DNA from: Amoebidium appalachense
Lineage: Eukaryota > Protista > Ichthyosporea
DNA: 64,000 nucleotides
Direction: 5' to 3'
Assembly: GCA_963693365.1 (NCBI GenBank)
Contig: CAVNZM010000004.1
Coordinates: 12,118,468-12,182,467, forward strand
Part shown: in pieces, positions 204 through 20,714 of the stretch
How positions within the stretch are numbered: position 1 is the stretch's first letter
Layout: the number at the start of each line of letters is the position of its first letter
Program-made: the position numbers and the translations under genes
Notes under the pieces: model-generated
Told to the model about the DNA's origin: nothing
Seen by the model: the letters and a program-made list of their open reading frames with translations, nothing else
Database searches by the model: none

Positions 204-1100
204 CTCGTCAATGGTTACTGTAGGGCCGTTTTGGTAGGGCCATGTGAGGGAGAGACTGCCGGCAGGGAGGGAAGACAGGCCACGGAACACGGCACAGACC
301 AACTGCCCCGTATGGCTGTATGAAGTGGTGGCTGTCTCCTGCAGCCGGTCTAGCAGCCCGGCAAGAACCAAACGAAGACCCTCCGGTGTGTTGGTGTTAT
401 CGTCCAATCGCACGGCTCGGTTTGGATCCACGAGCCCAGCAGTTGTCCCTGATTGGATGACGTGTAGAAGGAGCAATTGCCATTGGCCAGAATTCAGCAA
501 GCCGATCTCGGTGTTGCGCATGAGATCAGCGTCACGAATAGTCTCCTGCTCAGAGGGTGCCATGGGCAGCACACCCACCAACCGGGCCCACCGGGTGGCC
601 ACCCACACGGCCAAAAACATTTCGGGTCGGGCCAGGTACAACCCGAGAATGAACCGGCACTTGTCCACTCCGTCGGTGCACACAGTGACGTCCATATTGA
701 GGGCCTCGGTGGCTCCTTCAGCCGTTGCTAGGCAGCAGCGAATCACAGGGGTTGGTGCCTTCACGGCCGACCGATTGATGCTCACCGCCAGCCCCTCCAG
801 TGCGGGCACAATCTGATACTCCAGCCAGTGCTGTCGGAGATTTCGGTCGGTGGCCAATAGGATTTTCCCAGCTGGGGCATATGGCGGTTGCATCGCCGCG
901 GGCTGTGGGCGCAAACATAAATCCAAATCGCTCGACTCATCGCACGTGAAAAGCGCCGCTGACCCATAGATGTGCGGAAGGAAAGGGCCAATCAGGTTTG
1001 CCGATTGGAGGTGGGCATATACCTGCTCGGCCAACTGGAGCTTCTCCTCAACCCCCCGCTGTAGGCCGGCCACGTGGTCGACAAAATAGCGCTGTGACGT
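204..1100 (-). other. Pol-beta superfamily nucleotidyltransferase, non-canonical poly(A) polymerase/TUTase (Cid1/GLD-2/RDE-3) type
   Basis: [21 protein letters not shown] (GS at 960-965, DxD at 921-929), KAPTPVIRC, third Asp in NMDVTV (690-692), then [11 protein letters not shown] and [17 protein letters not shown], matching the KxWAxxxGl and GgLsSY motifs of Cid1/TUT enzymes. Same reading frame and exon as the RdRP. Confidence 0.85.
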
Positions 1101-4100
1101 CCGACCAATAGAATCCTGCACCGTACCCAACGGGCAAATCGGCCGGCTTTGATTTGCACCAGCCGACATGGCCGCCAGGTGATCCCCCGGGATCCAGGCA
1201 AAACCAAGGCATGACTCGGAACCAGTAATCGGCGCCAGTTTGCCCTGTGATGAGGGAGTGTAGGCAGCCTGGTACCATGCCGATGCGGCATCCAACCAAT
1301 CATCATTGGTGGGCTGGCCCTTGGTCACCCCCGCCACAATCTGTTGGAATATCTCCCGATGGTGCTGCCACACACTTGCAGCCGCCTGCTGCATGCCCTC
1401 AAACGCTCGTCCTCGATTGGCCGCCATCAGGGGGTGCAATGCTGGGCACCAGCCAATCAAAAGCTCGCTCTCGTGGTCTGCGCCATAAATAGACACGGCC
1501 TGCGCAATTTCCACGCAATACTGCACGTGGGCAGTTCGTGCCGGTGCCATAAACCGCCTAGCCCCCGGGCGCTGAAATACTCTGTGCACTTTTGCCGCCG
1601 AAACCACCTCTGCGCGCAATTCTGCTGCGGCATCATACCCCTTTGCCCGGCGATACAACTCACCGAGAATTTTTCCGGACGTGTAGGAATCTTTGTCGGC
1701 CTTTTCCATGAAATCGGGGTATCCCTTGATCTCGATCAACTGCATTGCCTGCACGGGCACCATGGGTGCAATGCCCGTCTTGAGCGAATCCACCGCCACT
1801 GATTGGGCCTCGGCAACGGTTAATGCAATTTGATTGGTTGCCCCGCCTTCGAGCATGTCGCATAGCGCCAGGTGCATGGATGCGACCCGGCCCAACAAAT
1901 CGCTATCCATGGCCTTCGAAATGTACTGGCCCAAATTCCGCTCTGTGGAATGGACCAATGACAACTCGTCGTCGGAACCCATAGAGCCGGCCAATGACGA
2001 CTCGTCGTCGGAACCCGTCCAGCTGCAGGGGTCGAGGAAATTGGCCCAAAAAACGTCGTCGTGCATTAGTGCAAGAGGGTTTAGGGGGCGGGTTTCAAAC
2101 AGTTGGCGTGCCTGCTCCTGGACTTGTGCGTAATTCAGGGGTAAGTGCCGGTATCGCTCAGGGGGGATCAACCGTTTATCCCAAATAAGGGAAAGTTTAT
2201 CCCCGTCGAGATCACCGCCGCTGCATGCAGCCAATAGGGACGACCGGATAACTGAACTTGCCGGAACAATGACGACATTCTTGTAGGCCCTGAGCTCGGG
2301 CCTGTCCACTACACGCACCACCTGCACGTCCCCTGGATGTAGGCATGGGTTGCGGTACACCATGCACTGTGACGTCACACTGGCAAGAATAAAGGACCCC
2401 CCCCTCTCCCCCACAGGTGCTTCGTGGGTGTAGTCGATGCTGGCAAATATCTCGCCGTCGTTGAGGCAGCCAATCGGATCGGGGACTGCAAGTAGCATCA
2501 CCGAATCAGGCACGGGGATCCAGGTCTTGGCAACCAATCCCCTCACGGCCCTGTGGTATGCGGTCTGGACCAATGAGAAGAGGAATGGCTCCCCAAGAAT
2601 GTCGATCCCTGATTGGACGGCCACATCCAAAACACTGCGGAGAGGAAGTGGAACCATGGGTCGCACGTGCTCGTACGCTTTGCCCCCCTCCACCAATAGG
2701 GTGAGAGCATCCGAAAGTGCCCTCTCCTGCAGGTCGGCCAACGCGCCGTCCGGGGACCACGTGCCAATTTGTGATTGGCTCTCGCTGTTGCCTTTTTCGG
2801 CAAGCGACGAGAGGAGGGTAATAATCTCACGGTTGAGGCTGACCTTGGTGGGGCGGGATACACCCACCACCCCAAACACCACATGTCTGGACTGGAGTTT
2901 CTCCGTGCTCTCCCGGTACACCATCTTAACCCCTGGACCGTACCGCCGCATGTCTGGGTCGGTGCTTGGATCAACCACCAATGCCACCCCCTTGCACCCC
3001 GCCCACCGATATTGGAACGCGGACGGAACATACCCCAACCCAAGTGCGGTGGAGATTTGCTGTGCCGTGGTGTAACTCACTTTTGCTGCGCCGTCCGTTA
3101 ACAAATCTTGGCCCGAGAACGTGCGGATATCCGCAACCTTCACCGCTTCCGTAGTCGGAATCTCAATGGTGGGTTTGTCGGCAGTGCAAAACAGGGCTAG
3201 ACGTGAGCGTGCCTTGGCCGTTTCCTGGCTGGTGGAGCCAGAGAACACCTCAACGTCAGCCTCGTCAACTGCTCGAACGATACGGTGCCTGAGCAAAGAA
3301 ACGTCGTCCGATTGGCCGTTGCCCACATGAACAAAGAGCGCAGATTGGTTGCGCACCATGCTGTTGCTCGCGTTGAGAAACCGGTAGGTTTTATCGTGCA
3401 CCACATACCCATTCGTAAGAATCTCCCTCACACGATCGCGTGCATATGTTCCGCTTATCTTCTGGAATTGCTCCTCTCGGAACGTAACGACGGTCAGTGA
3501 TGCCCCTGGTGTTGCAATGGCCTCACGAAGCATCCGGCTACATTCGGTGGCCACCGAGGGAAGGGGAATAGTACGGGATGGAGTAATGATAACACGTGGC
3601 ACTGACACGTGATTGGGCGGCATGGAAACGGACGGTGCTGATAGGCTAGAAAGTGCCTCTTGCAGGTGTTCGAATTCAGCGGCGCTGTCCGACCAATAGT
3701 TGCACTCTAGCCGCCGACGAGTTTCATACAATGTCGCGGCTATAACGGCCAGTTTTGATTGGTCACCCGCTGCCGTTTGCACCTGGAATCGGACTTTGTG
3801 CAGCACTTTTTCGCTGGCTGCCTGTGGGGAAAATGCCGCGGTTGCGTAAAATGCCGATAGCGCCCACCAAATCTCTCGCCCAATGGCTGAATCGGAATTA
3901 TAGCCGGGAAGATCGACCCACAGGGGCTTGCTCCAATCAAAAACGGGAGAATGGCGCGCTGCTGTGGCGACGGAAATCCGTGTGTCGAATAGGGGGACAG
4001 GCACTGCCGCGTGATTGGTGAACGCCTGGTGCAGGCCTAGCCAATCACACACCAGGGATTGGCGGGTGGTGGGGACGGAGAAACATATAGCTGCCGCCGT

Positions 4101-4420
4101 CGACACTTGGCTGAAGATGGGCCCAGAGAGGTTCCTCTCCTCCACGAGATCACCGTCCCTGTTCTCTTTTTCTGAAAAAAGAAAGGCGGGAGACGAAAGT
4201 GGGACACACACACGGAAAAACGGCGTAGCACTGGACGATTCACTGCTGATAACGATGAATCCAGCTATTTGATTGGTGGGGATTCGCATGATGTAACGCG
4301 CGGATGCATGGCTGAATGAAACGTCGAGTGACCCCCTGGGATAGAGGGTGAGGGCAAGTGGTTCCGGGATGGCTGTTTGCTCTTCGAAGGTGGTGGGAGT
4401 AGTCAGGACACCCAGCGTGG

Positions 4421-4516
<96 letters not shown>

Positions 4517-5246
4517 TGTGTATGTGTGTGTGTGTGTGTGTGTGTATGCGTGTGTGTGTGTGTGTTGGGGGGGGGGGGGGGGGGGGGGGAAGAGGTCAGC
4601 AACTGTGTAGAAATCTCCATTGGCTAACTGCTGTCAGAACCCCCCCCCCTCACCCCCATTACCACCACCACCACCCATCTAAAGACACTCGCGCACGCAC
4701 AGACACACCTAGGCTTGTACCCCTTGCCCCCCCTTCCCCAACACCACCACCACCACCACCACCCTTTCCCCCCACCGGTCCGCCCTTCTTCTTCTCCCCC
4801 TCTCGGCACCTTCGCTCTGCTAACAGCATAACGATACCCCATGGGCACTTGTTCAACTTAGCTCCTTTCATTACCATGCACCAACAGCCATCCTTGCGCC
4901 CTAAACCACGTGTAAATTTGTGCCTTCCCACTACTCTGCCCTGCCATTCTCCCCTTTCCTTCTCACCCTCCAACTACACCTTTCAACACACACCCTTCCG
5001 TGAATTCCACTGCCTCCCCCCCACCCCCTCACCCCCCCCCCCCCCCCCCCAAAAAAAAAAAAAGACCGCGCTACACTTAGACCTCTCTTGCCCTTCCTAC
5101 CCCCCATCTCCCTCCTCCTCATGACGACAGCTTAGTACCTATGCTAAGATTTATCCCCCCCCCCCCCCCCCTCCCCCCCCACAAACCCCCACACACACAC
5201 ACCCACAAACACACACACCGTGCTCTCCTTTCCCCCACTCCCCCCC

Positions 5247-5277
<31 letters not shown>

Positions 5278-6468
5278 AAAAAATAAGAGAGAGAGAGAAA
5301 GAAAAGAAAGATCCTTCCCTCCAACCTTCTCCAACTTCTCATGAGCAGCCACACTTCCGGGCCTGTCCTTACTGTCTGATCACCCCCCTCCCCCTCCACC
5401 CCCCCCTCCTCTCCCGACCCCATGGCCTTAAGCTTACCTTTGCCAGCTTCCAGGGCTTTCCGTGCGGGAATCGGTTGCCGGCCTGCACGTGCAGCAGTTG
5501 TGAACTCATGCGCGGCAGCCACCACATGGTTAGACCAGATGATTGGTTGCTACGGAAGTCCCAATAGGAACACAGCTCCGCATATCCATGCACCACATTG
5601 GGCACGGTTCTCGCGGCGCTCTTGCTGATTCGCAGGTTGAGCAGATGGATATTGTCGCCATAGCAACCGTTCACGCCACGGGTCCCGCAACCAATCGCTT
5701 CAATCGATTGGATCTTGATGCCCTCAGCCACACGTGACAACGTGTCAACCAGGATCTGCGAGTCAATTTGATTGGTCGATGATGAGCCTGGCTGGTTCTG
5801 ATTGGCCAATCGCACGTGCACCTCCACCACAAAATCACGCACGTCGTAGCCAATCAACCGTTCGGGTGGGGGGGTTGGCTGTGTTGAGTCGCTGCCCCCA
5901 AGTTGGCGAAGAAGTGAAAGTGCCTGCAAGAGGTAAAACTATTAGGAGAACCCCACGAGAATACAAAGTGCACTACCCCAAGGCATGTTGCACTCTTATC
6001 TCAACACCTCCCCACATTCTTTCCTTGACCTCTGTTATCTCTCCCCCCCCCCCCCCCCCCCCGAGTCCCCCCCCCCCCCCCCAAAAAAAAAAAAAAAAAA
6101 AAAAAGCATACACATCCTTACACCCCTCTATTCAGTCACATCTGACATCTGACCGTACGGTAAAGCCTGCCAGCGTCCCCCCCCCCCCCCCCCCCTCCCC
6201 CTTCTCTCTCTCTCTCTCCCCCCCCCCCCCCCCCTCTCCCCCCCCCTCCCTCCCCCCCCACACTCCACCCCCCTCCCCCCCCCCCTCCCCCCCTCCGCCT
6301 CCCTTCAACATGCTGCCGCCAACTCGTCCTTCCCCACCCCCCCTTCTTTCCTGCTAATCTTGTACTCCCTTTCTACCGGGCTTGTACCTTGACAGATGTG
6401 CGATCAAAGTACTCATCTGCTCCTCATAACAGCACGAAACCCCCAACTCCACCCCAGAAAGCCCTCTT

Positions 6469-6504
<36 letters not shown>

Positions 6505-6619
6505 CCGCCTCCCAAAACCCATTTGTATCTGAAAGACAACTTTGCCCATTCTACTCGCCCTTTCCCTCCTTTCGGTTACCCAAAAGATCCAGCCCTCATT
6601 TATACGACCACCGAGCCCT

Positions 6620-6650
<31 letters not shown>

Positions 6651-7491
6651 GCCCCCTTTCTCCCCTTTTTCTTTTTTCGTACCTGGGCGGATGGTAGGTG
6701 CTGCTCCTCAGCCAACTTGTTCAGGTACATGGCCATAAACCTATTCTGCGACTGAATTTTCTCCAACTGGAATTTGCCCTCCTCACTCGCAATCACAACC
6801 GTTTTGCTGTTCATCTTCCGCGCCCTTCCGCGGCTCTGGACCAGTGAAATTAGCGAATTTACGCCGTCGAATCGGATCACGAGATTGCAATCGGGCACGT
6901 CCAGGCCCTCCTCCAATACTGAAGTGCACACCAGCAGCCGTGTCTTGCCCTCTCGAAAAGCTTCAAGCGCGGTTTCCTGCTCGTCTGCCAAAAAAAAAAA
7001 AATTATGATTGGAAATACACCCCAAACCTAAAATGTAGTGGTGGGGGGCATACATAGAGGAACAAAGAAGGGGAAAGGGGGTTGGTGGTGGTGGTAGTAG
7101 GGGGAGAGGGGGGAGGGGGGAGAGAGGGGGGAGTGAGAGAGAAAGAGAGAGAAGGAGAGGAAGTGTGAAAGGTAGAGGGAGAGAAAGGGAGAGTACTGCG
7201 CCGGAGGGGGGGGGGGGGGGGGGAGGGTGGGGGGGGGGGGAGCGGGTATGGAAGGGAGAGAGCAAGAGATGGACCAGAGAGCAAGCCCGTGGGAGGGAGG
7301 ATAGCATTTGAAAGATAGAAGCATTAAGCAGGGTACTAAGACCATGATGGTTGGGAGGTAAAGAAATGCTTGGACGGTTGGGGTGAAGCAGCTATTTGGC
7401 CGCAGGGTGGGTGGGTGGGGGGGGGGGGGAGGGGGGGGGGAGGGGGGGGGGAGGGGGGGTGAGAGGGGGGGGGGGGGAGGGGATGGACTTT

Positions 7492-7533
<42 letters not shown>

Positions 7534-10152
7534 GGAGAGGGGGGGGGGGGGGGGGGGAAGGGGGGAGATGGAGGCGTGGTGCTGCTTATTGGTAATGGTG
7601 TGAACATGAAAGAGACTGATGCGAAATCGGATGTTTCACAAGGGGATTCAAAAGTTGAAAAATGCAAGAGGGAAGGTGAGGTGAGGGAAGGCTTCAAGGG
7701 GGCTAGGTAGAATTTTTTTTGGGGGGGAGGGGGGTCGCAAGTAGATTGATGGGTGGATTGACAGGTTGGAAAATCCAAATGGATGGCTGTGAAACGCGTG
7801 GAAGGAAGGTGAAAGCCACCCAGATGGGGGTGGGTGGGTGGGGGTGGGGGGTGGGGTGGGCTGTGGGGGAGGGGAAGGGAAGAGAGAGGGGTGGGGAGGG
7901 CAGGAGGGAGGGGGGAAGGGGGGAAGGGCGGGGTGGGCAGGTGGAGGGGAGGGGAAGCTAAAGGGGGTGGGTGGGGGTGGAGGTGGGGGTGGGGCGTGTA
8001 AGAGGGGGGGGGGGGGGGGGGGGGGAGGGAGAGTAAACACACCTTCCCACTGCATGCCATCCTCCCCCCCGTGCCCAACCACCATCATTGGCGCATACGC
8101 CTTCCCCACCTCCCTCTCTCCAACCACCTTAAGCAACGTGCGTGCCAAACTACGCGTCAGCACAAACACAAGAATTTTCGCACCCGGGCCTGCGCTGTGC
8201 AAAAGCTCCATAAGAATCCTCAGACGATCTGAATCGTGGCCCACTCCATCTGCACGGGAAAGAACATATTCATCCGATAATCTGGTGTAGACGGATTTAT
8301 CGCGATAATGCGATTTCAGCTCCTGTAGGCCGTAGTGTGCACCCAGCACGGTGCCGATCTCCACCACACCCATGAGCACCAGAATACTCTGCCCGAGTGC
8401 AAGTATGTCGTTTTGGCTCTGCCTGCGTGCATCATCACACACCCCTCTGATCTTGCCACGTGCCTGGCCCATGCCCCCCAACCTGCCGGGAACAGGCGCC
8501 TTTAGTAACACAGCGTTTCATCGTCCCCTCTCCTATCTCCCCCTCTCTTTGTCCCCCCCCCCTCTTCCTCCCTCCCCCCTCCTCCCCCGGGTTAATCTTT
8601 GCTCTGCCGCCTGTCTGAAACCCTTCTCATTCCTAAACATAATCCTCCTCCCCCCCCCCCCCCCTGCCCCTCCCCCCTCCCCCCCCCCCAAAAAAAAAAA
8701 TGCAATACACGTGCACATTCTTCCCTTCCATTTCGCCCATAACGCTCTGCCTTCTGTTCTTATCGGATTTATGACTAATCTCTCTACTCTCTCACGTACC
8801 CACTCAGGCACTCTCTCCCATTTACATGAATACCCCTTCATTACAACCATTATCGAAGCCCAAGCGCCCCCCCCCCTGCCCCCCCCCCCCCCCCCCCCTC
8901 TTTTCCCCCCTCCACCCTCCACCCTCCTCCCCTCCCCCCCCTCCCCCCCCCCCCTCCACCCTCCTCCCCCCTCCCCCCCCCCTACCTTTCACACACACAC
9001 ACGTCATTCTTTGGCCCCTTTGCTCTTTTCTTCTTCCTACACGCCATCATCTGCAACCCCTTGCTTCACTTCTGGGACATTCAATCTTCTACTTAGGCAC
9101 ATGACCTCAAAGAAGTTCTTAACCATTTGCCCGAAACCCCCCAAAACACACACCCACGTACAAAGTTATCACTTTCCTCCCCATTTGGTCAAGATGGGTC
9201 GATTTTTACGTTTTTTGTGTGTGCCTGTGTGGCAGGGGCCGGGAGGGGCGGGGGGGCGGCGGGGAGGGGGGAGGGGGGGGGGGGGGGGGGGGGGCAGCAG
9301 GAGAGGGGAGGAGTGACTGCGGGGGGGGGGGGGGGGGGGGGGGGGGGGTGTCATAAATGATTTTTCAGGCAGATGCAAGATGGGGCAACGGATGGGTCGG
9401 GTCAGTGCGTAATGAGTGTAATGAATACGGTTTTCTGTTTGGACAGGGAGGGAGGGGGGGGGAGAAAGAGGGGGGAGGGGGGGAGGAGAAAGAGGATGAC
9501 AGGAGCAACCCACCTAGTGACCAGCTCACCAAAAGTCAGCATGCGCTGATCAATCATGTCCAGCCCCCCTCCACGATTTGCGCCGCCAACTCCTGGATTT
9601 TTCTCACAACGCCAGTAAGAAACCTAAATTCCGCATCTGAAAGTTGCGCAATCTTCACCTCCTCTTCGTGAGACGGACGGGGGATATCCAATGGGCGATA
9701 GATGGGGGCATCGCAGTAGTAAGAGGAGAGTTTTAGGCGGGCATTGTCTGCTTTGGCGAAGTTTTCGGCGGCAAAAGGCGATGCGGTCAGGCCGAGAAGA
9801 CGAGGGCGGTTGGTGGGAGGTAGTAGGCGGATTGCATCTAGCACGGGCATGTACTTGTGGTCTCCTGGGGGGGTTGCAAAAGGTTTGTGTGTGTGCCGAA
9901 AAGTGGGGGGGGGGGGGGGGGGGAGGGGGGCAGCGGAAGACGGTGCTGGAAAAAGTTCAATGGAGATTCAATGGAGGGGGGGGGGGGGGGGGGGGGTGTT
10001 GCGGGAAAGGGGGAGACGGGGAGGCTGAAGGGTGAAGGGGGGGGGGGGGGGGGGGGTGGCCAGGGCCATTAGGTGATGTTTAAAGGGGTAAGAAAGAAGG
10101 CTATAGACACGTGTAATTGTGTGTGTGTGTGTGTGTGTGCGTGTGTATGTGT

Positions 10153-10185
<33 letters not shown>

Positions 10186-10636
10186 AAAAATGGGCACACA
10201 GGCAAGCTTGAGCCACCTCTACCACACCATCAATACATGGCAAAGCAATAGACACAGCACCCGATATCTCTTGAAATAACTAATAACCTATCCACCCGTA
10301 ATAGACACAACACCCGATATTTCTTGAACTAACTGATAACCTATCCACCTGTAATAGACACAACACCCGATATTTCTTGAACTAACTGATAACCTATACA
10401 CCTGTAATAGACACAACACCCGATATCTCTTGAACTAACTGATAACCTATCCACCTGTAATAGACACAACACCCGATATCTCTTGAACTAACTGATAACC
10501 TATCCACCTGTAATAGACACAACACCCGATATCTCTTGAACTAGTGACAACCTATCCACCTGTAAAGCCACACCCCGTCAACAGCATCAGCACACGTGCT
10601 CTTTCCAAACTCATGATCCCTTTGGCCCCTCCCCCC

Positions 10637-11427: not shown

Positions 11428-12863
11428 TCCCCTCGCCCCCTCAAAAAAAAAAAAAAAAAAAAAAAAAGGTTGTGCAATTTGCTCCTGCTGGGGCAAGCAC
11501 ATTGTGGCTCATAAGCCTGTTTTCGGACTATAGTAACTCTCACTCCCCGCCACCCCCTCCCCCCCCCCCCCCCCCCCCCCCCTCTTCCCCACAAACACCC
11601 CTTCCCCTTTTTCTCTTCTGCCCCAAGTACCAAACCTCACTCCACCACCACCTTATCTACCGTAAGCCACAAATGTAGGGAGAAACCGTGGGCAAAAACC
11701 AACTAAATGGCAAAGACAGGAGAAAGGCACCTGTGGCATGGTGTGCCTCGTCAACCACACACACGCAGAAGTGATCCAGTCGGATCAGCCCATTGCGGAT
11801 CAGATCCACCAATGAGCCCGCAGTGGCCACCAGCACATCAAATCTGCCCCCGTGCAGTTGCCTCACCAATGTTGGGGTTTTCGTTTCGCTGCACATCCGG
11901 CACACACTCAGCCCTGTTTCCACGGCAATTGCCTGGCCCTGTGGATTGGCAAAACATCAGTAAAAGATATTCTTACATCTGTTCTAACCCTGTACCAGAA
12001 TCACACCATCCAAGCCAAAGTTACGAAAAAATACGAAGGAAGTACATGCATAATGCATGCCAGGAGGGATGACACGGACAGTGAGGTAAGGGTGTAAGCC
12101 CCTAGTACACCAGCAGTTAGAACCCCCCCCCCCCCCCCCCCCCCCTCCTTCCCCCCCCCTCCCCCCCCCCCCCCCCTCCGGCTACACACCGGCACCACCA
12201 CCACACACATACGTCCACCCACCACGCACAACCACACTCATAACAACACACATGTCACCACCACCACCACCTGTTCAATCAGGGGTTCTGTGCTGTATTC
12301 AAGTATATCTTGCGCAGTTTGAGGGTGAAGGGGGACACTGGGAGTCGAAAACGGGGGGAGGGGAAGGCGGGGGGTGAGGGGGGGGGGGGGGGAGTGCTGG
12401 GTGATTGGGTCAGTGTGTTTGTGTGTGTGCAGTTAAAGGGGGGGAAGGCGGGGGAGGACGACATTGCAGGGTGGGACAGAATAGAGAGCAGCTTATGCTT
12501 TCCTACTCCCCCTCAATCCGCACCCCCCCCCCCCCCCATCTCTCCCCCTCCCCCCTGCACCCCCCCCCCCCCCCCCCCTCTCACCCCGTTTGCCGTCCCA
12601 AGTTCCGAACACCAATTTTTTTTCCGTGTGAGCTTAAATGCCCCCAGTTTCACCCAAATCACATCCCACCCCCCACCCCATGCCGCTTCTTCCTCATTTT
12701 CCTTAGTGGCTCTATGAGGGGATGCGGGGGAAGGGGGGAGGGGGGGGAAGGGGGGGAGGGGGGAGGGGGAACTAATGCAATGAAAATACGAAAGGCCCAG
12801 AGGGGCAGAGAAGGCCACAATCCCCCCTCCCCCCCTCCCTCCCTCCCCTCTCTCGCCCCCTTC

Positions 12864-13445: not shown

Positions 13446-14199
13446 GGGAGGGGGGGGGAGGGGGGGGGAATACCTGCTGAAAGACCAGCGGCACCCTCTC
13501 CACCAAAAACAGAGCCATCTTGTCTCTGTTGAGTGCCTTCATGCGATAGATCAACATGGCTGCTACCAGGGTCTTCCCTGCACCCGTCTCAGCAACTAGC
13601 ACAATGTCCTGAAGAAGCGCCTCGAGGTACGCCTTGATTTGGTAATCCCGTGGCGTTTTTACGACACATCCCTCCCAGGAAAACTCCTCTGGAACAGAAG
13701 GGCTTGCAAACCGAATGGGGGTGGTTGGTTTCGATGCCACCTGTGCGGCCAAACGGGATTTCCACCCGCCTTCAGACCCATCATCGGGCACCCCATCATC
13801 ATTCACGATGATATGATAATTCGTCTCACCCCGTTGTTGGACGTTTGAAAAACGAGGGTATGCCTCCCACCATTTTTCCTTGGGGCCAAGTTGGATCCCA
13901 TCGATGCACACCTTGTCAGAGCCAAAACTGATAACGTGTGTGCTTGAAGGCCCTGCTGCTAGCTCTTTACCCAGCGAAGATTTGCAATGATGACACGCCA
14001 CGTCGCTCTTTATGAAATTCTTCTTGCTGTTGCCCCCTTTGGCCAGAGGTCTCAGTTCGACTTTTTCGGTTGCGAATGCTTTGTGCTCGGGCTTGATTGA
14101 TAAGTGGACGTCCTTGCTACCCTTTACAAAGAAAAATATTTCGTCTGTCGCGAAAAGCTTGCGGTGGCAGGCCAAGCAGGCAAGCCCACTGGTTGCCAT
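204..14199 (-). CDS. Multidomain RNA-silencing protein: RLR-CTD-like Zn domain + RIG-I/Dicer-type SF2 helicase + eukaryotic RNA-dependent RNA polymerase + Cid1/TUTase-like nucleotidyltransferase (3'-partial, >=2244 aa)
   Basis: Exons read by hand, all GT-AG: 14199-13474, 11938-11731, 9864-9514, 8482-8043, 6984-6683, 5923-5438, 4421-204. Another GT donor follows at 203, so the gene continues outside the window. Phases match at every junction provided one base is restored in the C-run at 9564-9569. In-frame stops lie upstream of the ATG at 14199. Diagnostic motifs of all four domains are present in order. Confidence 0.9.
1185..3605 (-). other. Eukaryotic RdRP catalytic domain (QDE-1/Rdp1/RDR alpha-type)
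   Basis: Minus frame of exon 4421-204: [70 protein letters not shown] (DLDGD at 2199-2213), [40 protein letters not shown]. Confidence 0.96.
6683..13660 (-). other. RIG-I/Dicer/FANCM-family DExD/H helicase domain (exons 1-5)
   Basis: Q motif PRDYQ; motif I AETGAGKT; Ia [10 protein letters not shown]; [12 protein letters not shown]; III LGLTASP; [11 protein letters not shown]; [22 protein letters not shown]; [10 protein letters not shown]. Confidence 0.95.
10247..10563. repeat. 53-bp minisatellite, 6 copies, in intron 2 of the helicase-RdRP gene
   Basis: Unit AATAGACACAACACCCGATAT(T/C)TCTTGAACTAACTGATAACCTATCCACCTGT starts at 10247, 10300, 10353, 10406, 10459 and 10512, head to tail with no spacers. 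Confidence 0.95.
13905..14190 (-). other. N-terminal zinc-binding domain resembling the RIG-I-like receptor C-terminal regulatory domain (RLR-CTD / Yippee-Mis18 fold)
   Basis: [18 protein letters not shown]...DVHLSI...AF...[13 protein letters not shown]: two CxxC pairs about 55 aa apart, with a central His and a CxxCxxxhG end, as in RLR CTDs. Confidence 0.65.
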
Positions 14200-15606
14200 A
14201 GTGAAATCACCACCCAAAGCTCTGGTGGCAATGGGGCTCCTGGATGTGCAATGTTGGAAATGATACCATCGTCAGCGGAACAGTGGTCAATTGAAGATCT
14301 GTAGAAAAATTTGATGATTAGTATTATATTAGACCATGTGTGTAATCGATTTATGAAGAAATAGAGAGAGCTCTGACAGCCTCAAACAGCAACCAAGGGT
14401 GACCATGAGCAACATGGCATGCATGCACATGTTCGGAAAGTGGGTGGCTATGATAGATCTACGGTATCATCGGTGAGATAAGTACCAAATTCCTTACCTT
14501 TTAGCCACAGCGCAGTATCTTTGCCTAAAAACTAGAACTTCCTGACACATCTGTGGAATTCAGAGAAACATTCGCAACCCATCACAAGGCAAGATGGAGG
14601 GAACACGGCCCTCTCAGAACACCGGCAGGACCCTTCCTGTATAGCACAGGCTGCCTGTGGCAGCGGCAAGTTTCGGCAACACGAAATGAATGCTGATTGG
14701 TGGAATCCACATGTCATTGGAAGACGGCGAGCGAATTCGAAGGTGCATGTAATTTATCTCAGAAGTTAACTTTTTTTTTTTTTTGCCTGAATACAGACAA
14801 CCCACATGAATCCAAAAAAAAAAAAAGGAATCAAAATGAGAAGCTATATTGTGTATGCCATACATCGGTAACATCAAAACGGTTTGATCTTTCAACATCA
14901 ATTACATAAGCAACAACTGGAGCAATTATTGACAAAGCAAATCTATTGATGAAAAGTCACGCAAACGGGACAGTCATAACATTTTTGGCAACAATGTACG
15001 ACCTGACACGAAAACGAAAACATGGCCAGTCGACGTCATGTGACAGACAGCGTGGCAGTCCACATGTATACACATACAGTGTGTGTTTGTCTTGTGCTAC
15101 TCTAAAAGGAGGCCTTGCATTGCAGGTGGGAAAGCGGTGCTTACAGTCGCCCGAGTATGTACAATAGCGTATGCACATCACGTGTGTGGCATGCGCACAT
15201 GCATCCCGTTCATGATCGACTCCAGGGGGATGATTTATCTTTCTCTCTCTCTCAGTTTTTTAAAAAGGGGATGGGGGAGTAGGGGCGAGGGGGGAAGGAA
15301 GAGAGGGAGGGAGGGAGGGACGGACGGAGGGAGGGAGGGACGGAGGGAGGGACGGAGGGAGGGAGCGAGCGAGGGAGGGAGGGAGGGTAGGAAGGGAGGG
15401 AGGGAGGGAGAGAGGGAGAGAGGGAGGGAGGGACGGAGGGACGGAGGGACGGAGGGAGGGGGAGAGAGAGGGAGAGAGAGGGGGGACCTCGGAGAGAGCC
15501 TTGATGGGGGGATCCGGAGGTGGTGGGCCCGGATGGGGGGGCGTTTGTGTATGTATGTGTGTGTGGGAGGGGGGTGTTGGGGGGGGTGGAGTGGGGGGTG
15601 GGTGGG

Positions 15607-17742: not shown

Positions 17743-18065
17743 ACACACGCACACACACCCCCTCCCCCCCCCCCCCCCCCCCTCCTTCCCTTGACCCCCT
17801 TCAGGTTTCCTATGCTGAGGCAGCAATAAGAGTGAGGTGGGGAAAGGAGAGGAGGGGGTGGGGAGGGGGGATGAAATTTACGGTGCGGTTAGATGGCCCC
17901 ACTGCCTGACCTATTCATGCCCTTTCCCTCCCTCTTTATTGATGCACGTGCACCAGCCTTTATACTGAGCAAAAGTATCCGTATCTGTGCGCACCCCCCC
18001 CCCTCCCCTTCCCCCCTACACACCCACACACCCACCCACCCACCACCACCACAAACACCCCCCCC

Positions 18066-18096
<31 letters not shown>

Positions 18097-20714
18097 ACAC
18101 ACACACATTTTACTTTCTCTTTCTTTCTGTGTTTTCTCCTTCTTACCTTCTTAACATTCTGTTGTGCATCTGTGTGAAAGGGAATGGGGCAAAGGACATA
18201 TGTGTGAAACGAAGTGGGGTGGCAGGGTGTCTTTTTTTCTTTTTCTTTCTTTCTTTTTTTTTTTTTTGGAGGGGGGGGGGGGGGGAGGAGGGAAAAGGGG
18301 GGGGGGGGGGGAGGGGGGAGGGGGTGGTAGCGGTGTTTTCAGAGGAATGTGGAATGGGGCTTGCATACAATGAAGCTAAAACCAACCCCTTCACAGGGAC
18401 AGCCACAAGCTCAACAGCAGTACAGCCCATGAACCACCCCCTACCCACCACCACCATTACACCCACCCAGCAACCCAACATTCCACTACAGCCAGTCCCA
18501 AGTATGCCTAGCGGCCTAATTGCACCAGAAACAAGCACACCTTCTCTGGTTCAGTTGCAACGGGGTGTAAAACACAAGTGCACCTTCCCACCGTGTGAAT
18601 TGACGTTTGACCGCCCGGCAGAGCTGGCACGCCACTTGCGGACTCACACGGGGGAGAAACCGTACGCGTGTTCTGAATGCAACGCCTCATTCAGGCAAAA
18701 AGCACACCTGAAAGAACATCAGAAAGCACACACCGGGGAGAAGACACACACGTGCACACACGAGGGGTGCGGGGCCAAGTTTCTCAACGCAAGCAGCCTG
18801 AAGAAGCACGAGCGAACACACACGGGCGAGAGACCGTATGTGTGCACGTACACAGGGTGCGATGCGGCCTTTTCTGTTTCGTCTGCGCTTGCGCGACATA
18901 CCCGCATGCACACGGGAGAGCGGGTGCATAGGTGTACGGTGGATGGGTGTGGTGTCATGTGTAAGGATTCAGAGGCCTTGCAGCGTCATTTGAAAAATCA
19001 CGTTCCGGCGTCTCGGTTGTACACGTGCCCGGAAACCGGGTGTGGGCAGATGTTTTCCACTGCGACGGATATGATGGTGCATAGACGGGCACACAGTCGG
19101 AGAGCGGATTTTGTGTGCACCGTGTGTGGGGAGGTGTTACCCGAAGGAACGGATCTGACCGAACACGTCTCCCAACACCAACAGTACACGCAAGCGGACG
19201 AACGACAAAACGGCGGTGGCGCCACAAACATGTTTCCGCCCATCCCTCGTGTGACAATTAACCCCACCACCAAGACCGTTTCTACTAATGCAACCATAGT
19301 AGATCCGATGTCTTCAGTTGCACTACCGCTATGCAACAATAACAACAATAGTGTTGCAGCCGTGGCTTCGGTTGCTTCATTGGTGGCTACAATCAGTCAG
19401 GCGTCTCTAACCGGGCCAATCATAAACCACACGGGATTAATTGCCTTTCCAGATGGTTCTATGTTCCCGCGCATGCCAAGCGTCGAATCAAACAGCACGG
19501 TTTCTAGCCAACACAACCAAACCGCGATTTTCCCACGGGCTTTCAGCGGCCAATCAAATGGGACGCTTGATTCCCAGCCGAACTCGGACCTTACGGCACC
19601 ATATGGCAACCTGTCGCTTGACGGCGACGATTTGGTTTTTGACACCACGGATGAGTTTGGGCTGCCAGGGCACCTTTCCGCCCTTTTCTCGATCCTTCCA
19701 TCCGGCTGCTTGGAACCTGCACTCGAACCGACGGTACGTGACGTGGTCGAAAACATCGGGGGAAACGAAGAAAACGAGGTTAACAATCAAAACGGCCGAA
19801 AACGGGTGCGTAAGAGCCAAGCAAAAAAACCGGCGGGGGAGAAGCCGAAAACGAAAAAGCACCGGCGAGTGGTGGGTGTCGGTGAAGGCAACGGTTTTCG
19901 CTGTGCAATGTGCGGACTTATTTTTTCGATCCCAGAGCACCTTTCCAGCCACTTACGCACGTTTCACGGGGACCTTCTCCCGTACGCGTGCCCCCATTTG
20001 GGGTGTGGCATGCGGTTTGAGCTGTCGGAAGACTATGCCAGTCACGCCATGTCCCATGCAGGTGAAACCCCGTACAAGTGCCGCCATGCAGGATGTACCG
20101 AGAGATATGAAGACTTGGAGCCCCTATTGACTCACCTGACCACCCAGCACGATGTGGAACAACGTGATCGGTTCTGGTGCCCTCTGGAAGAATGCGGAAA
20201 GAAATTCGACTCGGCGGCACACCTTAAACGTCACATATCGCACCACACGGGGGAGAGGAATTACTCGTGTGAGGTCCCCGGGTGTTTGGCGAGTTTTACC
20301 CTACCCCACCATTTGAAGGCACACATGCTCACACACACGCGCGAGAAGCAACATGCGTGTACCATTCCTGGATGCGGTGCGTTTTTCGAGCGAGAAACAG
20401 CTTTGAGGAAACATATTACAAAGGCACACGCAGATAAAGTGCTCGGGGCGAAGAAATTTCCCTGCACCCACGAGGGGTGCGGGCGCGTGTTTGTGGACAA
20501 AGATGCGTTGAAAAAGCACACACGGACACACACGGGGGAGAAACCGTACGTGTGTCTGGTGGACGGGTGCGGTGCACAGTTTGCACAAAGCGGGAATCTG
20601 ACTGCACACATGAGGAGGCATACGGGGGATAAACCCTTTCAGTGCTTGCATCCGGGGTGTGAAAAGAGTTTCAGGCAGTCGGGCCAACTCCGGTCTCACA
20701 TGAAGCGCCATTAG
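16840..20714 (+). CDS. C2H2 zinc-finger transcription factor, 16 fingers in two clusters (7 + 9), about 898 aa
   Basis: Exon 1 16840-17218 (P/Q/F-rich, GT at 17219) joins in phase 1 to exon 2 18397-20714. Repeated CxxxxC...HxxxH fingers with HTGEKPY linkers. Confidence 0.9.

Follow-up and report, generated by a model that had tools for sequence, protein, structure and literature searches.

What kind of machine is encoded when an RNA-dependent RNA polymerase (RdRP) and a second, different RNA-polymerising domain share one reading frame? The question arises from a gene on the minus strand of a 64,000-nucleotide stretch of the ichthyosporean Amoebidium appalachense genome (assembly GCA_963693365.1, contig CAVNZM010000004.1, positions 12,118,468 to 12,182,467; hereafter the window), for which a first-pass annotation, made from the letters alone, had proposed that a domain resembling terminal uridylyltransferases (TUTases) and poly(A) polymerases is fused directly behind the RdRP in a single exon. 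The gene encodes a helicase, an RdRP and a nucleotidyltransferase in one chain, and the fusion is that of a conserved family, not peculiar to the Amoebidium genome.

A helicase, an RdRP and a nucleotidyltransferase in one chain

Exon 7 of the gene (Table 1) is free of stops through both polymerising domains, and in the open reading frame reading of the 64-kb window the stop-free minus-strand frame runs from 4595 to the window edge. The RdRP domain corresponds to amino acids 272-918 of the translated window:183-4400 and retains its catalytic motif (GGDLDGD, with DLDGD at 2199-2213). From the RdRP FAW motif to the transferase YGS the chain runs for 78 amino acids, and the third transferase aspartate lies 77 amino acids beyond the second. 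The full transferase pattern, YGS-x10-DLD plus a third Asp, arose in 3 of 5,000 shuffles of the domain.

The class of the transferase emerges from a family profile and from modelled structure. Scanned alone in Pfam, the domain matches PF22600 at E 0.0074, below the cut-off, and a phmmer search of the lone domain against the PDB returned nothing relevant. A profile built from seven family sequences matches GLD-2 (E 3e-9), CutA, Tailor, TbTUT4, Cid1 and MEAT1. The AlphaFold model of 204-1148 (pLDDT 87, pTM 0.86) has the two-lobed fold of TUTases and non-canonical poly(A) polymerases, and VIA-align superposes 255 of its residues on TbTUT4 (2q0e) with Z 19.0 and a root-mean-square deviation (rmsd) of 3.9. 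All 50 VIA-align matches listed are terminal transferases, Foldseek matches of the model are TUTases and GLD-2, and the top ESM Atlas clusters are PF22600/PF01909 (score 0.96). Across 25 sequences, namely the window protein and 24 database relatives, every member carries the pattern G[GS]x7-13DhDh plus third Asp that defines pol-beta ribonucleotidyltransferases and terminal nucleotidyltransferases (TENTs) (10.1101/422972). Since the G, the S and the three aspartates are invariant in 25/25 while the relatives are 16-26% identical to the window, the transferase is predicted to be a live enzyme.

The first-pass annotation therefore stands on its central points: the exon is uninterrupted, all the motifs that it quoted are present in the exon 7 frame, and two RNA-polymerising sites appear intact in one chain, as judged from DLDGD and from the transferase GS with its three aspartates. 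Its spacing of about 70 amino acids after the RdRP end motif was of the right order, the measured distance being the 78 given above. It had also held that its TUTase/poly(A)-polymerase-like assignment would fall if the domain had no profile or structural match to the nucleotidyltransferase fold; both kinds of match were found.

Six further coding exons lie upstream, all with GT-AG ends, and exon 7 itself is bounded by AG and GT. Contigs from run X1 cover the joints from exon 2 to exon 6, and a loose contig end at 4423 links exon 7 to exon 6; X1 is taken as RNA from its spliced contigs, is not on record as RNA and possibly derives from the same organism sample as the window, so that it supports splicing and not independent occurrence. 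No X1 contig supports the junction of exons 1 and 2, which is predicted from GT-AG ends and homology, and none of the listed RNA contigs reaches the donor at 203, the nearest ending at 220. An intron at 14298-14498 is spliced out upstream of the ATG at 14199, pointing to a non-coding first exon. As assembled, the helicase frame breaks at amino acid 414, where one contig carries an additional base at 9563, in a G-run; judging from this single contig, the break is most likely a homopolymer assembly error. With the 9563 gap bridged, the joined exons give 2,244 amino acids without a stop, containing the CxxC pairs, GAGKT, DEAH, QSRGRAR, DLDGD and the transferase motifs. The DEAD and helicase-C domains are N-terminal to the RdRP in the same transcript (exons 2-7), the layout of the helicase-RdRP fusion class. 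In a PDB comparison the helicase of the fusion family is nearest to Dicer and RIG-I-like helicases. The window zinc domain has no sequence match in the PDB, and the zinc domains of relatives match RIG-I_C-RD below the cut-off (E 0.0022 in Rhopilema, 0.018 in Hydra).

Table 1 Features of the fusion gene, in positions of the window
Feature	Position	Strand	Evidence or content
Exon 1, coding	13474..14199	-	two CxxC pairs (zinc domain, weakly RIG-I C-terminal-domain/Yippee-like); helicase motif I GAGKT
Exon 2	11731..11938	-	DEAH box; Pfam DEAD E 1.7e-5; joint 9863/11730 in run X1
Exon 3	9514..9864	-	helicase motif III (LTAS); assembly one base short at 9563 against spliced contig
Exon 4	8043..8482	-	helicase insertion and start of second lobe; spliced X1 contig
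Exon 5	6683..6984	-	helicase C domain (LEEGLD, QSRGRAR); Pfam Helicase_C E 2e-15
Exon 6	5438..5923	-	helicase-to-RdRP linker; joint 5922/6682; loose contig end at 4423 runs into exon 6
Exon 7	204..4421	-	4218 nt; RdRP and nucleotidyltransferase in one frame; GT donor 203-202
Cellular RdRP (PF05183)	1647..3587	-	Pfam E 4.3e-102, profile positions 1-581/582
Pol-beta-fold nucleotidyltransferase, TENT/TUTase class	204..1148	-	structure model, Foldseek, VIA-align, family profile, motif
Transferase GS	960-965	-	motif
Transferase aspartates	927-929, 921-923, 690-692	-	motif
Family Lys, at Cid1 Asn position	660-662	-	
Gly at Cid1 Tyr position	486-488	-	
Invariant Trp, predicted recognition-loop position	240-242	-	

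Introns of the gene, for example 4422-5437 and 5924-6682, are dense in poly-G/poly-C, poly-A/T and CA/GT runs, and the intron between exons 2 and 3 holds a tandem array with a unit of about 60 bases, recognised by eye (10280-10570). Divergent from the gene, on the plus strand, a long frame at 17943-20714 encodes many C2H2 zinc fingers (Pfam E 1e-55).

A conserved family and its C-terminal tail

The 24 relatives with the RdRP-transferase fusion include two proteins of Hydra vulgaris and proteins of Hydractinia, Rhopilema and Macrostomum lignano. They come from three homologue searches, which covered long proteins only and are silent on stand-alone transferase relatives. The first gave 14 matches among 7,996 candidates (2 reaching through the transferase, 12 plain RdRPs), a profile restricted to the sequence behind the RdRP gave 22 among 6,440, with PF05183 also present in 22/22, and a more diverse profile gave 2 among 7,993, adding M. 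lignano. Helicase domains are found in 18 of the 24; the remaining six are shorter at the N-terminus and perhaps partial. In a scan of metagenomes, 3 loci out of 38 pattern matches were considered and set aside as looking like ordinary plant-type RDR ends, and among viral contigs the fusion was confirmed in 0/4 candidates.

The relatives also decide whether the fusion could be an assembly artefact or a chance read-through. The assembly does contain at least one single-base error, at 9563, and no single listed contig spans 1137-1182; however, all 24 relatives are collinear over the junction, their FxW-to-GS distances (65-84 amino acids in the 23 that are measurable) bracket the 78 of the window, and the spliced window protein aligns with relative P0002 over residues 6-2233 at 26% identity. 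An artefactual origin is scarcely credible, and we regard it as ruled out by the homologues.

The RdRP motif DxDGD is present in 24 of the 25 sequences. Relative P0035 has HLDGD at this site, with the first Asp lost and the transferase triad kept, and is possibly a natural RdRP-dead, transferase-live form. The clusters of P0032, P0033, P0035 and P0036 form a sub-clade; each cluster holds 15-81 members, which come from ENA assemblies and in some cases lie on megabase contigs. In the window, an acidic insertion with a short duplication (DDESSLAG/DDELSLVH) lies behind the RdRP catalytic region (1920-2060, minus strand) and is mostly absent from P0002 and P0003.

A quick IQ-TREE analysis of the RdRP region placed 22 fused rows on one side of a branch (SH-aLRT 100) and 11 plain RdRPs, plant and fungal ones included, on the other; P0004, P0025, P0037 and P0038, which are partial in the RdRP region, were left out, as were duplicates and cluster members. 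Of the 22 fused rows, 18 form one clade containing the cnidarians, which leaves about five deep independent lines in the tree. The window sequence falls outside this clade, on a long branch beside P0039 (support 89), and its RdRP groups with the Hydra proteins against the 11 plain RdRPs. The fused RdRPs may have a single origin; the tree was built without reference gamma or beta RdRPs.

Behind the transferase, a YFMEG-like motif recurs in 24/24 relatives. Nine have tails of 737-851 amino acids and 15 stop at 495-526, perhaps because their gene calls ended at an intron. The modelled tail of the Hydractinia protein (pLDDT 81) contains a KH domain, matched at Z values of up to 8.8, and a Cet1-type triphosphate tunnel fold, which aligns best with RESC1 (Z 22.8, rmsd 3.4, 281 residues aligned), followed by Cet1 (Z 17.4) and Pct1 (15.1); an ESM Atlas search with a relative's tail returned scores that were all under 0.8. 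Two arginines are invariant among the nine full tails. In a register taken from strand order, the metal-binding glutamates of Cet1 are not conserved there at the presumed motif-a positions, the second Glu being Thr or Ser in 9/9. The tunnel is shared with Cet1-type RNA triphosphatases and with trypanosome RESC1/RESC2, which in the accessible part of the source lack two of three catalytic glutamates, RESC2 binding the guide-RNA 5'-triphosphate without being an enzyme (PMC10201420). Because of the Thr/Ser replacement, the modelled tunnel is likelier to be a binder than a phosphatase, resembling RESC2 in this register and differing from both RESC and Cet1 proteins in its fusion to an RdRP. By extension from the relatives, the Amoebidium gene would also carry a KH domain and a tunnel, beyond the window.

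How much of this was known? Helicase-RdRP fusions have been published as RDR-gamma in oomycetes, in Dictyostelium (RrpA/B/C), in Hydra (RDR1-3) and in Nematostella (RDR1) (PMC4791657 and PMC3950715, both in their accessible portions), and share with the window gene an N-terminal DEAD and helicase-C unit fused to a cellular RdRP. As described in those portions they consist of helicase and RdRP only, PMC3950715 speaking of two functional domains, whereas transferase, KH and tunnel do not enter the description. The first 400 residues of HydmRDR1, as given in the accessible part of PMC4791657, are nearly identical by eye to family member P0029, so over that stretch the published Hydra RDR1 appears to be P0029. 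PF22600 is already labelled on Hydra proteins in precomputed Pfam annotation, and the transferase is therefore visible in databases. Our literature searches found no report of the fusion or of its C-terminal tail, with subscription papers thinly covered and with figures or supplements that may show the domain; the term "nucleotidyl" occurs 0 times in the partial texts of PMC4791657 and PMC12768352 and in the texts of PMC6396948 and PMC13650160. Within the sources as available, the helicase-RdRP class is known, and the addition of a C-terminal transferase with a KH and tunnel tail is the part for which no published report was found.

A rebuilt nucleotide pocket

Like the TENTs Cid1, TUT4/7, TbTUT4, Tailor and GLD-2, the family domain has the two-lobed fold and GS-x10-DxD plus a third Asp, with Z 15-19 to these enzymes. 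Unlike them, it has an altered pocket and only a short segment, with an invariant Trp, from the last helix to the recognition loop. In Cid1, according to the accessible text of PMC3479196, N171 binds both uracil O2 and the ribose, the base stacks on Y212, and its edge is read by D330/E333/H336. With equivalents placed by HMMER alignments to GLD-2, CutA and Tailor, the N171 position is Lys in 25/25 and the Y212 position is Ala (20) or Gly (5), so that the ribose/O2-binding Asn and base-stacking aromatic of Cid1 and TUT4/7 are absent from all 25. Because these uridine-selecting residues are replaced throughout, the family does not look like a standard TUTase; nucleotide selection is probably not achieved in the Cid1 way, and strict U-specificity is doubtful. 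The replacements do not point to A either, since GLD-2 keeps both Asn and Tyr, and a TRAID-seq preprint, in the part available, describes such residues as poor predictors of specificity (10.1101/422972).

The first-pass annotation was right to leave the nucleotide unassigned, as the replaced residues favour neither the Cid1 nor the GLD-2 rule. Its suggestion that the nucleotide-recognition part may lie outside the window, on the other hand, does not agree with the model, whose last residue (315) aligns to Cid1 343, beyond the D330-H336 loop; the counterpart would accordingly be the last ~15 codons of exon 7, inside the window, in a register set by the end-points of the structural alignment. 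This counterpart is non-canonical, with the invariant Trp and no His in the window.

Could the domain have lost catalysis and become a clamp on 3' ends that sets templates in place for the RdRP? The missing Tyr (base stacking) and Asn (ribose binding) would suit such a role, as would the PAP-associated profile (PF03828), which matched 0/7 tail pieces and 0/7 whole proteins. Pseudo-transferases, however, usually lose their metal-binding aspartates, and here GS and all three are invariant in 25/25. A non-catalytic clamp is accordingly quite improbable; the transferase of the window family is probably active but non-standard, so far as its residues tell.

An active domain with this pocket may also perform some other nucleotidyl transfer, either producing an oligonucleotide signal of the OAS/cGAS kind once the helicase has sensed RNA or joining 5'-triphosphate RNA to a 3'-OH. 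All members share the rebuilt pocket (Asn to Lys, Tyr to Gly/Ala, an invariant Trp), RIG-I-like sensor modules and the triphosphate tunnel are on the same chain, and three Nematostella RdRPs are poly(I:C)-induced, yet no secondary small interfering RNAs (siRNAs) were detected, according to the accessible part of PMC12768352. The comparisons point elsewhere: the profile matches are TENTs, the 50 VIA-align matches listed include no OAS or cGAS, and the sole cGAS/DncV-like nucleotidyltransferase among the Foldseek matches listed is CdnC, at rank 44 with TM 0.29, TENTs scoring far higher. We consider such chemistry rather improbable. Its boldest form is an ancient eukaryotic one-chain machine whose transferase does not tail, instead joining or circularising RNA with tunnel-held, RdRP-made 5'-triphosphate RNA as donor, or raising an oligonucleotide alarm; this is suggested by the missing base-stacking Tyr and by the Lys at the site that in TUTases holds the free ribose, and is a slim prospect. 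If true, a non-tailing transferase would bring a new chemistry to RNA silencing or to innate immunity.

A proposed order: tail, then copy

We lean towards a self-contained RdRP complex, all in one chain, in which a template is first tailed and then copied and the 5'-triphosphate product is kept bound. In such a complex the zinc and helicase modules would contact RNA that is structured or double-stranded, the transferase would add a tail to the target RNA at its 3' end, and copying by the RdRP would follow, the tail perhaps licensing primer-free initiation. The tunnel would hold the new 5'-triphosphate product without hydrolysis, and the double-stranded RNA could feed Dicer and Argonaute against transposons or viruses. 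RdRPs are partnered by Cid1-family transferases as separate subunits in Tetrahymena (Rdr1-Rdn1/2), S. pombe (Rdp1-Cid12) and Paramecium (Cid1/2), according to the accessible part of PMC4066745, and in C. elegans the poly(UG) tails added by MUT-2 recruit RdRP (PMC7988573, likewise in part).

The likeness to RNA-directed RNA polymerase complexes (S. pombe Rdp1-Hrr1-Cid12, Tetrahymena Rdr1-Rdn1/Rdn2, C. elegans MUT-2/RDE-3), which likewise pair an RdRP with a Cid1-family transferase and often a helicase, is functional only, since their subunits are separate proteins whereas the window gene has one reading frame and is no multi-subunit assembly. The window helicase is of the RIG-I/Dicer type, whereas Hrr1 of the S. 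pombe complex is Upf1-like.

The same parts could act in another order, with the transferase tailing what the RdRP has made, or small RNAs derived from it, to mark these RNAs for sorting or turnover, as in C. elegans, where the siRNAs of EGO-1 are uridylated by its binding partner CDE-1 (PMC7988573, accessible part). A 5'-triphosphate tunnel on the same chain would keep the product near the transferase; against this, the residues that select U are replaced, and the ciliate RdRP partners known from genetics are needed for silencing and do not limit it (PMC4066745, accessible part). Product tailing is in our view unlikely.

Several points weigh against template tailing itself. Template tailing and product tailing are not separable by domain order; the canonical nucleoside triphosphate (NTP) pocket is changed at the counterparts of N171 and Y212, perhaps a sign of another chemistry; and the PAP-associated profile is unmatched. 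The KH domain and tunnel are not in the window, and 15 of the 24 relatives end part-way through the tunnel region. Nematostella, with four RdRPs, yielded no detected secondary siRNAs in the accessible part of PMC12768352, which speaks against a plain amplification role if its helicase-RdRP carries the same tail.

How an RdRP chooses its template is described as largely unresolved (PMC13650160), and so is the role of cnidarian RdRPs. In the fused proteins, one chain likely does the tail-then-copy job that is split among separate subunits in yeast, ciliates and worms, in a layout found also in proteins of Hydra, jellyfish and flatworms. From the rebuilt NTP pocket one would expect a specificity, or a chemistry, on which Cid1 or GLD-2 rules give no guidance. 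The fusion offers a single recombinant protein and point mutants with which tail-coupled copying can be tested, as well as tractable animals in Hydra, Hydractinia and Macrostomum. The presence of helicase, RdRP, transferase and 5'-triphosphate tunnel in one gene suggests that tail-coupled copying is an old design and not a set of separate inventions.

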